This document shows positions 15,770 to 36,474 of a stretch of DNA of 64,000 bases, piece after piece. Origin of the DNA: Candidatus Falkowbacteria bacterium (GTDB lineage: Bacteria; Patescibacteriota; Patescibacteriia; Patescibacteriales; WJLG01); assembly GCA_963747695.1 (NCBI GenBank), contig CAVVFV010000010.1:389618-453617 (forward strand), in the 5' to 3' direction. Made by a program: the position numbers and the translations under genes. Positions within the stretch are counted from its first letter, which is position 1. Each line of letters opens with the position of its first letter. The notes beneath the pieces are model-generated. The model had not been told where the DNA came from. It did not search any database and saw only the letters and a list, made by a program, of their open reading frames with translations.

Positions 15770-15802
15770 ACAAAAAACCGCCCCGCCGGGGACGGTTTTT
15801 TT
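15770..15802. terminator. bidirectional intrinsic terminator between convergent rnj and trpB2
   Basis: GC-rich hairpin CCGCCCC-gcc-GGGGaCGG flanked by an A-run upstream and a T-run downstream. Confidence 0.7.
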
Positions 15803-17120: not shown

Positions 17121-17207
17121 AAATCAATTGATTAAGTGAATAATAAAACTCGAGCGATAACTTCGCCAGAATTCCCGGCCGCGAGTTTTGAAATAAAATT
17201 TACTCAT

Positions 17208-17480
17208 AAAAATAAAACCTCCCATCCCTTCGTCCGAATTAAAAAATTCGGACAAAAGGACGGAAGGTTATTCCGCGGTGCCACCTTTGTTATCTGGAAG
17301 ATCGGCGTGGCGGATAAAAAAATAATCCGCCAGTGACGGATCTCGAAGATCTCTTTCACTGACTCAAGGCTCTGCCCGAGGCAGACGACATCAGTTATCC
17401 TTTGGTTACGGAGGAAGCCGGACCGCCACTAACGCAGCGATCTTCTCGAGTCTTAATGACTCAAAGCGCGCCCAACCCCC
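17208..17480 (-). promoter_or_regulatory. T-box riboswitch leader (tRNA-sensing antiterminator) upstream of trpB2
   Basis: The minus strand reads AAAGGUGGCACCGCGGAAUAACCUUCCGUCC (core at 17273-17285), matching the T-box consensus GGUGGNACCGCG...CGUCC. A long terminator hairpin (17218-17267) plus U-run (17208-17217) follows immediately, and its 5' half overlaps the T-box. Confidence 0.8.
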
Positions 17481-17536
17481 GGAAAAAATTCCCGAGGACG
17501 CGCCGAAAAGAATTTGTAATTGTTAAAGATGATTGA

Positions 17537-17565
17537 ATCATAGGCCGATCATCACGAATTGTCAA
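17537..17565 (-). promoter_or_regulatory. near-consensus sigma70 promoter driving the T-box leader
   Basis: Minus strand: TTGACA (17560-17565), 17-nt spacer, TATGAT (17537-17542). Confidence 0.65.
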
Positions 17566-34282: not shown

Positions 34283-34486
34283 ATATTAAATAATCTATTC
34301 TTTTTGACGCTAGTAGGCGTCAATTCACAAAAAAAGCATCCCGCCTCGGCGGGATCCTAAAGTCGTCCTGATTTCATACTCAGGGCGCACGTACAGTATA
34401 TAGTCTTGAGAAATCAAGATTCTCTATATTTGGTAATCGGACTTCGGTTCGAGTTTACCCTTCGGCAACGAAGTAAAATTTTAAAA

Positions 34487-36474
<1,988 letters not shown>

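Follow-up and report, generated by a model that had tools for sequence, protein, structure and literature searches.

The window analysed here is a 64-kb stretch of DNA (64,000 nucleotides of contig CAVVFV010000010.1, assembly GCA_963747695.1), and our subject is the leader of its minus-strand gene trpB2, a region that very probably forms a T-box riboswitch specific for tRNA-Trp. The gene itself (17120-15828, minus strand) encodes a TrpB-like pyridoxal phosphate enzyme of 430 amino acids and was assigned to the TrpB2 type by NF009057 (733 bits) and TIGR01415 (658 bits). A preliminary description of this DNA had called it a stand-alone TrpB2-type gene without a trpA partner; the type was confirmed and no trpA or further Trp-pathway gene was found within the window, but 'stand-alone' holds for these 64 kb only, the source contig apparently being 454 kb long. 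A sigma-70-type promoter (TTGACA at 17565-17560, a 17-nt spacer and TATGAT at 17542-17537, minus strand) was present as described, with 11 of 12 consensus matches, and its position places the probable transcription start near 17530. From there the minus-strand leader extends for about 410 nt to the trpB2 ATG. The length of about 400 nt given earlier was therefore close; however, the last 85 nt or so are a conserved small open reading frame (ORF) and not untranslated RNA. A terminator search placed a terminator-like hairpin with a U-run at 15772-15801 (minus strand), closing the trpB2 transcription unit.

Architecture of the trpB2 leader

All leader features lie on the minus strand, and the counts given for related leaders rest on the matches listed from the metagenome scan presented in the next section. 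The 5' domain opens with the Stem I domain (17512-17443), closed by a basal helix of U17512-C17510 with G17445-A17443, the pairs of which covary in 87 distinct leaders of the alignment made with our 5' domain model, R1. In the window copy an inserted hairpin (17462-17448, GAGUC-AUUAA-GACUC) creates a three-way junction in this domain; many relatives among the seed leaders carry a kink-turn (K-turn) in place of the junction (ACC-UAU-GA-A...G-GA-GGU). The truncated Stem I itself (17503-17466) consists of an outer helix (GCGCG, 17503-17499, with CGCGC, 17470-17466), the conserved U17498 that follows it, and an inner hairpin (17497-17477) in which a 6-bp helix and an 8-nt loop stand above the specifier. 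The outer helix was 96% paired in the class, with compensatory changes at all 5 pairs. The distal platform of Stem I that contacts the tRNA elbow (AG bulge plus distal loop) is not present in the window leader. Across the class the part above the specifier is a hairpin of 6-10 bp or, in some relatives, a bare loop of 7-8 nt; thus L092, L094, L125 and L132 have no inner hairpin, and their UGG is part of a terminal loop of 7-8 nt. A similar promoter was seen in 48 of 64 related leaders, ending at a median distance of 33 nt from the outer helix of Stem I; the window shows the same distance. This leaves no room upstream for a long Stem I, so the short form is genuine and does not result from a missed detection.

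The specifier bulge (17476-17471) reads G-U-UGG-G, with the Trp codon UGG at 17474-17472 followed by the purine G17471. In every one of about 85 parsed distinct leaders the Stem I bulge ended in UGGG on its 3' side, with variable bases at the two positions before it (GU, AC, GC, GG, AU, GA, AA). Two other UGG triplets had been proposed as specifier candidates; both turned out to be base-paired, the one at 17428-17426 in the 3' strand of Stem II and the one at 17332-17330 inside Stem III.

Stem II is short (17442-17421), with 9 pairs and a GUUA loop, and its helix was 98.8% paired with 5 compensatory pairs. It holds an invariant UGC...AGUG tip with invariant U.G, G.U and C-G pairs. When the leader was aligned to the Rfam T-box family RF00230, AGUG of this tip aligned to the AGUA half of the S-turn and the GAA half was deleted; the invariant tip may be a different motif. 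The Stem IIA/B pseudoknot follows at 17420-17398, with IIA formed by CGG (17420-17418) and CCG (17411-17409) and the loop UCCU (17415-17412) pairing with AGGA (17401-17398). An F-box-like CCGUAA lies in this region at 17411-17406. The sole pseudoknot pair that our search pattern left free was U-A in 74 leaders, G-C in 9, C-G in 3 and U-G in 1, and was never unpaired.

The interval between the pseudoknot and Stem III is occupied by an extra hairpin (17394-17359), in which CUGAU (17394-17390) pairs with GUCAG (17363-17359) around an inner CUGCC-UCG-GGCAG (17384-17372). This hairpin is not in the Rfam T-box consensus and appeared in the RF00230 alignment as an insertion of about 40 nt between Stem IIA and Stem III. 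Its closing helix was 94% paired and covaried strongly (C-G 37 and U-A 33 at one pair; U-A 36 and C-G 35 at another). Next comes the 5' part of the discriminator (17357-17290), comprising the purine string GAAAGAG (17357-17351), an enlarged Stem III (17350-17292) and AA (17291-17290); AAGAG (17355-17351), Stem III and AA fit the RRRxG-Stem III-AA motif as defined in PMC7583486.

The T-box core AAAGGUGGCACCGCGGAAUAACCUUCCGUCC was matched at 17288-17258, where it had been reported. It belongs to an antiterminator (17288-17255) with two helices, A1 (AAAGG, 17288-17284, with CCUUU, 17259-17255; 5 bp) and A2 (GCGGAA, 17276-17271, with UUCCGU, 17265-17260; 6 bp), which flank the T-box bulge UGGCACC (17283-17277). 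All 11 antiterminator pairs form in the window copy. The pair at the base of A2 is G17276.U17260, and G.U was found at this pair in 52 of 82 class leaders. A1 and A2 were 97% and 93.5% paired in the class alignment; their covariation was taken from the covariance model (CM) alignment and not from an anchored pseudo-alignment, where the partner strand is chosen by maximising pairs. The bulge was UGGNACC across the class, with C at the variable position in 47 leaders and U in 43, and one variant.

An intrinsic terminator occupies 17269-17208, formed by a 25-bp hairpin (17269-17216) and the run UUUUAUUUUU, with a folding energy of -40.3 kcal/mol (z = -9.8). Its 5' arm is the 3' half of the antiterminator, so the two structures share 17269-17255. 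The overlap of core and terminator described earlier was thus present, and folding the two alternatives gave -8.3 kcal/mol for the antiterminator, no better than shuffled sequence, against -40.3 kcal/mol for the terminator. A weak antiterminator facing a strong terminator is the expected T-box logic, in which termination is the default unless a tRNA stabilises the antiterminator. Of 91 distinct related leaders, 89 had an equivalent terminator that starts in the 3' half of the antiterminator, with a median energy of -26 kcal/mol and about 20 bp. In the window the hairpin and U-run end 88 nt before the trpB2 AUG, and no sequestrator covering the Shine-Dalgarno (SD) sequence or start codon was found. 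Counted from the basal helix of Stem I through the antiterminator, the element measures about 260 nt.

Related leaders and probable specificity for tRNA-Trp

The gathering score of RF00230 is 93 bits, and at this threshold the family gave no match in the window, nor in 20 loci carrying class members; the scan that the preliminary description had suggested thus failed at the curated cut-off. A permissive scan did align the leader. The 3' core was placed with high posterior probability, while 84 consensus positions of Stem I were reduced to 3 nt, a Stem I placement that we judged wrong. The Rfam test was therefore equivocal alone, and comparative data were needed.

With the TrpB2 protein as query, 80 loci were obtained from GTDB representative genomes, and the UGGCACC core was found upstream only in the three closest (L001-L003, 74-75% identity; L003 is annotated 'Patescibacteria group bacterium'). 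No T-box was found at 76 trpB2 loci of other phyla. The leaders of L001-L003 and the window had a conserved block in common, CCGGnnnCCUCCGUAACCnnAGGnUAA, and a metagenome scan with this block yielded at least 120 loci. Among the matches listed, a T-box core lay 80-280 nt downstream of the block in 106 of 125 occurrences. Both T-box domains were also recovered in four further Patescibacteria-annotated loci (L203, L205-L207).

Two covariance models were used, R1 for the 5' domain, built from 18 compact leaders, and R2 for the 3' domain. R1 scored 56 bits on the window (E ~2e-14), with the next best site of the 64 kb at 13.9 bits when filters were off. For R2 the score was 67 bits under default filters; without filters it was 43.8 bits (E 2e-8), and the next best site reached 14.5 bits. 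Within the window both models matched only the trpB2 leader. In the 5' domain, 98.2% of cells were paired over 87 distinct leaders, and 266 cells were doubly changed, compared with 71 +/- 7 in shuffled alignments (0 of 500 shuffles) and at most 51 in any slid register. In the 3' domain, 92.9% of cells were paired over 82 distinct leaders; 18 of 22 pairs were compensatory (11.1 +/- 1.4 when shuffled), and 356 cells were doubly changed, compared with 91 +/- 18 in shuffles.

The genes downstream of class members, counted as class loci, were dominated by tryptophan functions: tryptophanyl-tRNA synthetase (TrpRS) at 23 loci, TrpB2 at 16, GATase at 8, TrpD-family proteins at 7, TrpE at 5, Trp-repressor-family proteins at 5, IGPS at 4 and TrpA at 3. 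An unknown family, distantly YbdK-like, followed the T-box at another 16 loci. With UGG invariant at the canonical specifier position and Trp genes under its control, the earlier suggestion of a tryptophan-sensing T-box was upheld. The bulge UGGC had also been taken to predict a tRNA with G73, and of six tRNA-Trp genes (anticodon CCA) encoded on the same contigs as related leaders, five carried G73 and the other A73. On the five contigs where bulge base and discriminator could both be read, one combination was Watson-Crick (C opposite G73), three were G.U wobbles (U opposite G73) and one was a mismatch (C opposite A73, L187). Trp T-boxes are known for placing U opposite G73, in 46% of cases in TBDB (PMC7778990).

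Several further gene families were seen next to class T-boxes. Directly after 23 of the 91 distinct class T-boxes stood a small ORF (40-90 aa) for a Cys-rich, zinc-ribbon-like protein (L001:2530-2652, L086, L092, L094, L104, L109, L117, L122, L125, L133, L142, L194, L198, L199, L203:2176-2349 and others). As in DnaJ and anti-TRAP, some of these proteins contain four CxxCxGxG motifs; a GWG motif occurs in several. An Anti-TRAP (PF15777) identity was rejected, the best score being 11.3 bits against a cut-off of 32; scores against DnaJ_CXXCXGXG were 17-19 bits (cut-off 32.7). The YbdK-like family mentioned above comprises uncharacterised proteins of about 255-283 aa with the motif VGVEREC, encoded by the first gene after the Trp T-box (L082, L097, L110, L114, L132, L145, L146, L149, L158, L174 and others). 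It had no Pfam match and a distant, sub-threshold likeness to YbdK-type carboxylate-amine ligases (45 bits), and may be an unknown Trp-related enzyme. A small protein of the Trp_repressor family (PF01371) adjoins trpB2 in L135, where it is the second gene after the T-box, in L208 (1947-2243) and at three other loci, and may provide a third regulatory layer. A second T-box discriminator with the bulge UGGU was seen at L001:57-149 (plus strand; R2, 38 bits) before an ArgA-like N-acetyltransferase gene (NF005840, 126 bits). The 5' domain of this copy is lost at the locus boundary, and with it the specifier; the copy hints that CPR T-boxes with other specificities exist, CPR being the Candidate Phyla Radiation.

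All named close TrpB2 homologues came from Patescibacteria, Candidatus Falkowbacteria or Candidatus Buchananbacteria, and on these annotations we attribute the window to a CPR-like genome, in agreement with the preliminary description. trpS, the TrpRS gene, lies at 38214-37222 on the minus strand (Pfam tRNA-synt_1b), and its product is 63% identical to T-box-controlled TrpRS encoded at other loci. As had been noted, trpS is without a T-box: the class models, with filters off, found none before it, and the upstream intergenic DNA is about 140 nt only. In four related Patescibacteria loci (L203, L205, L206 and L207, 3880-5172) trpB2 is directly followed by trpS under one T-box; in the window 20 kb separate the two genes, and T-box control of trpS was either lost or never present. 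A Candidatus Falkowbacteria locus (L201:273-3799) carries a trpB1-like gene, trpA and trpB2 in a row, with no T-box in the available 2.5 kb and no mini-ORF of the window type, showing that TrpB2 is not stand-alone in all CPR. The window also holds a short 16S rRNA gene (34481-35893, plus strand), 1413 nt compared with a model of 1533 positions, with several helix deletions. No 23S, 5S or tRNA gene was found downstream of it in the window, where trpS begins about 1.3 kb further on; the rRNA genes therefore appear to be unlinked.

The mini-ORF between the terminator and trpB2

The small ORF at the end of the leader (17207-17124, minus strand) directly follows the terminator and encodes MSKFYFKTRGREFWRSYRSSFIIHLIN, a candidate leader peptide with a single Trp codon (17168-17166); 3 nt separate its TGA stop (17126-17124) from the trpB2 AUG. 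Homologous mini-ORFs were found at 16 of 20 T-box-linked trpB2 loci (among them L001-L003, L089, L119, L121, L135, L154, L165, L169, L185, L203 and L205-L207) and not at trpB2 loci of other phyla. They share the motif [YF][FIL]xK[NT][KR][GAS]xE[FY]W (KxRGxEFW in the window type), which ends in one invariant Trp codon, and range from 13 to 33 codons in length. The mini-ORF always adjoins trpB2, even where the T-box lies 0.5-1.3 kb further upstream. Differences between homologues were concentrated at third codon positions (298, compared with 192 and 166 at the other two), and the ORF frame had the highest amino-acid identity and no stops. The peptide had no credible NCBIfam match, and the region 17210-17121 was not significantly structured (z = -0.66).

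The order of parts, namely a Trp T-box, a leader peptide with Trp codons and then the gene, is that of Bacillus subtilis rtpA as described in PMC2311275 and PMC10327191. The mini-ORF might accordingly act like rtpLP: with plentiful Trp-tRNA the terminating ribosome would occlude the trpB2 start, and with scarce Trp-tRNA a stall at UGG 17168-17166 would leave the start free. The coding-type conservation agrees with this, as does the short gap between stop and AUG in the window (3 nt), L185 (1 nt) and L089 (6 nt). However, stop-codon occlusion fits these three loci only, because the gap is larger elsewhere: over the 16 loci it ranged from 1 to 115 nt (median 31.5), the position of the stop was not conserved, and in 13 of 16 the stop lay 18-115 nt from the AUG, too far for occlusion. 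What is conserved instead is the peptide N-terminal to the Trp residue and the distance from the Trp codon to the AUG, kept at 39-57 nt in 13 of the 16 loci. The mini-ORF also has one Trp codon and not three, and its strongly conserved peptide points to a functional micro-protein or to an effect of the nascent chain, as in an arrest peptide. We consider an rtpLP-like mode of action unlikely on balance, although it retains some real chance.

We hypothesise that the mini-ORF is a Trp-tRNA-sensing leader or a nascent-chain arrest peptide, probably adding a second layer of control at the level of translation. An ermC-like unmasking of the trpB2 start was not supported: the model gave no consistent gain in accessibility of the start region (unpaired probability 0.59 to 0.71). 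Within the Trp codon of the mini-ORF begins a small terminator-like hairpin (GGCGA-AGUUA-UCGCU, 17153-17167, minus strand) followed by a U-rich run, and a ribosome paused at this UGG would cover its 5' arm; the hairpin might serve as a weak second attenuator, or the match might be due to chance. A small ORF of another kind that has tandem Trp codons (…MSWWREM…) was seen at L208 (about 2340-2410), 90 nt upstream of a trpB2 gene without a T-box within 2.5 kb, and may be a classical Trp-codon leader peptide.

Interpretation and comparison with known systems

We read the leader as a transcription-attenuating T-box riboswitch specific for tRNA-Trp, a member of a large Patescibacteria subclass that lacks the distal platform of Stem I, and put the probability of this reading at roughly 0.88. 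It is built on the architecture of the leader, its conservation and covariation, the identity of the specifier, the terminator and the regulon. The features that define a T-box core are all present, namely the bulge, the specifier, the discriminator motif, the pseudoknot and the switch between terminator and antiterminator. Binding of the tRNA, discrimination of its charging state and read-through would be expected by analogy with characterised T-boxes. The nascent leader, starting at about 17530, would fold into a compact tRNA-decoding module in which the truncated Stem I presents UGG beside the short Stem II and the IIA/B pseudoknot. By default, the 25-bp terminator (17269-17216) would form and transcription would stop at the U-run. 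Uncharged tRNA-Trp would pair through its anticodon CCA with UGG and through its free 3' end (G73-CCA) with UGGC, and the tRNA held in this way would stabilise the weak antiterminator, allowing RNA polymerase to read into the Trp-codon mini-ORF and trpB2. On a more speculative note, the extra hairpin or the invariant tip of Stem II could be candidate substitutes for the missing contact with the tRNA elbow.

Several observations weigh against this reading. The permissive RF00230 scan of the leader gave 32.2 bits (E = 3e-5 in a 900-nt search). No GA dinucleotides or K-turn GA motif were visible at the base of Stem I in the window copy, and no canonical GAA/AGUA S-turn was evident in its Stem II; known short-Stem-I T-boxes require both a K-turn and an S-turn (PMC7583486). 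In the minimum free energy fold, Stem I can shift its register, which lets GG of UGG pair with UCC on the 5' side. Alignments made with a CM lean towards the structure of the model. In addition, the search pattern prescribed Stem IIA and all but one pseudoknot pair (3 of 4), and the invariance of these pairs is therefore uninformative. No tRNA gene was found in the 64-kb window, and hence there was no tRNA-Trp of the same genome to compare. Finally, the L187 T-box (at about 6721) has UGGC while the tRNA-Trp gene on the same contig (8917-8993, CCA encoded) has A73, the sole exception among the five contigs compared.

Some of these points would suit a decayed relic, its terminator either always active or without any effect, with trpB2 set mainly by the mini-ORF, by another regulator such as a Trp-repressor-family protein, or by a translational switch. 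Besides the low Rfam score and the K-turn and S-turn missing in the window copy, such a view could draw on the Trp_repressor-family genes that adjoin trpB2 in several relatives and on the mini-ORF, which is conserved whatever its distance from the T-box. However, more than 100 leaders keep every helix by compensatory changes, together with the UGGNACC bulge, the G.U at the base of A2 and, in 89 of 91, the terminator, indicating purifying selection on the whole switch, and the window copy retains 11 of 11 antiterminator pairs. Decay is accordingly very improbable.

We give even less credence to an ordinary class I T-box whose full-length Stem I was overlooked, with the short UGG hairpin being something else and the specifier lying elsewhere. 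The leader is long enough to invite the idea (about 410 nt), and the hairpin after the pseudoknot has UGA...GAG flanks resembling the Rfam consensus for the base of Stem I (gCgaUGAa...gGAGc). However, the promoters leave no RNA upstream of the short hairpin that could form a long Stem I, loops in the later hairpin vary and hold no conserved triplet, the UGG candidates proposed earlier are paired helix positions, and no unpaired triplet except UGG of the first hairpin is invariant. We also considered whether the hairpin after the pseudoknot is a displaced Stem I that carries a K-turn, and rejected this; its covarying 5-bp closing helix leaves a 3x3 purine loop and no K-turn, and the hairpin has no conserved triplet.

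A specifier in another register is just as hard to credit: a Leu codon one base upstream (UUG or CUG, as in the window and the three GTDB relatives) is excluded by the variable bases before UGG, where U, C, A and G all occur (AUGG, GUGG and AAUGG among them) and leave no conserved Leu codon, and a Gly codon one base downstream (GGG, as invariant as UGG) is excluded by discriminator logic and gene content, since bacterial tRNA-Leu has A73 and tRNA-Gly U73 while the bulge base is C or U and the same-contig tRNA-Trp has G73, the regulon is Trp-specific, and the canonical order of codon, purine and helix fits UGG-G.

The element is best seen as a transcriptional T-box in which Stem I is truncated and a helix has been added, apparently an undescribed structural variant. 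No T-box was linked with CPR, Patescibacteria or Parcubacteria in the literature searched, which is not proof of novelty. A wider proposal is tentative, and we hold it at somewhat less than even odds: that the leader is the type example of an undescribed, CPR/Patescibacteria-wide class of transcriptional, Trp-specific T-boxes without an elbow platform or canonical S-turn and with an extra helix, that this helix or the Stem II tip is possibly a new tRNA contact, and that at trpB2 the class is coupled to a Trp leader peptide, possibly an arrest peptide, for two-tier sensing. Such a class would extend T-box regulation to CPR/Patescibacteria, whose genomes are minimal and for which few regulators are known, and it defines a Trp regulon there (TrpRS, TrpB2, TrpE/G/D/C/A and several uncharacterised families), with the conserved Trp-codon mini-ORF suggesting a second regulatory layer. 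It also offers a compact natural tRNA-Trp sensor of about 260 nt. Because annotation at the Rfam threshold misses the class, T-box censuses under-count it.

Compared with class I T-boxes (RF00230; B. subtilis tyrS/trpS-type and the Trp family), the present leaders share a specifier codon that closes the internal loop of Stem I on its 3' side and precedes a purine, the F-box/IIA-B pseudoknot, RRRxG-Stem III-AA, the UGGNACC bulge and the G.U at the base of A2. The antiterminator that competes with an intrinsic terminator, the control of Trp genes and the frequent U opposite G73 (PMC7778990) are likewise common to both. They differ in lacking the AG bulge and distal-loop platform, in a 9-bp Stem II without a recognisable S-turn, in the extra hairpin, in scores far below the RF00230 gathering threshold and in their Patescibacteria hosts. 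In the current view, transcriptional T-boxes need a long Stem I for quick capture of the tRNA through anticodon and elbow, whereas a truncated Stem I belongs to the slower translational ileS switches of actinobacteria, which rely on the S-turn of Stem II (PMC7583486, PMC7778990). A large, covarying family of the terminator type without a platform or an obvious S-turn tests this view.

The actinobacterial translational ileS T-boxes (Mycobacterium tuberculosis and Nocardia farcinica; TBDB class II) resemble the present class in a truncated Stem I without an elbow platform and in Stem II and IIA/B placed next to the specifier, and their 'ultrashort' form has the specifier in a terminal loop, as in L092, L094, L125 and L132 here. 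However, they have an SD-covering sequestrator, are specific for Ile and use an elongated Stem II S-turn that clamps the codon-anticodon duplex (PMC7583486), whereas the present class has intrinsic terminators (89 of 91), is Trp-specific and carries a short Stem II with the UGC/AGUG tip and the extra hairpin. The leader of B. subtilis rtpA (anti-TRAP) likewise has a Trp T-box terminator followed by a short Trp-codon ORF directly before the regulated gene, and complete translation of RtpLP blocks RtpA translation according to PMC2311275 and PMC10327191 (citing Chen and Yanofsky 2003 and 2004). In contrast to the 13-33 codons, one Trp codon, peptide motif and variable stop found here, rtpLP has about 10 codons, three of them for Trp, and a stop overlapping the rtpA SD sequence. 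The glyQS-type T-boxes are also reduced in architecture and act as transcription attenuators; however, they lack Stem II and IIA/B and keep a full-length Stem I with the elbow platform, so the reduction seen in the trpB2 leader and its relatives is the opposite one.

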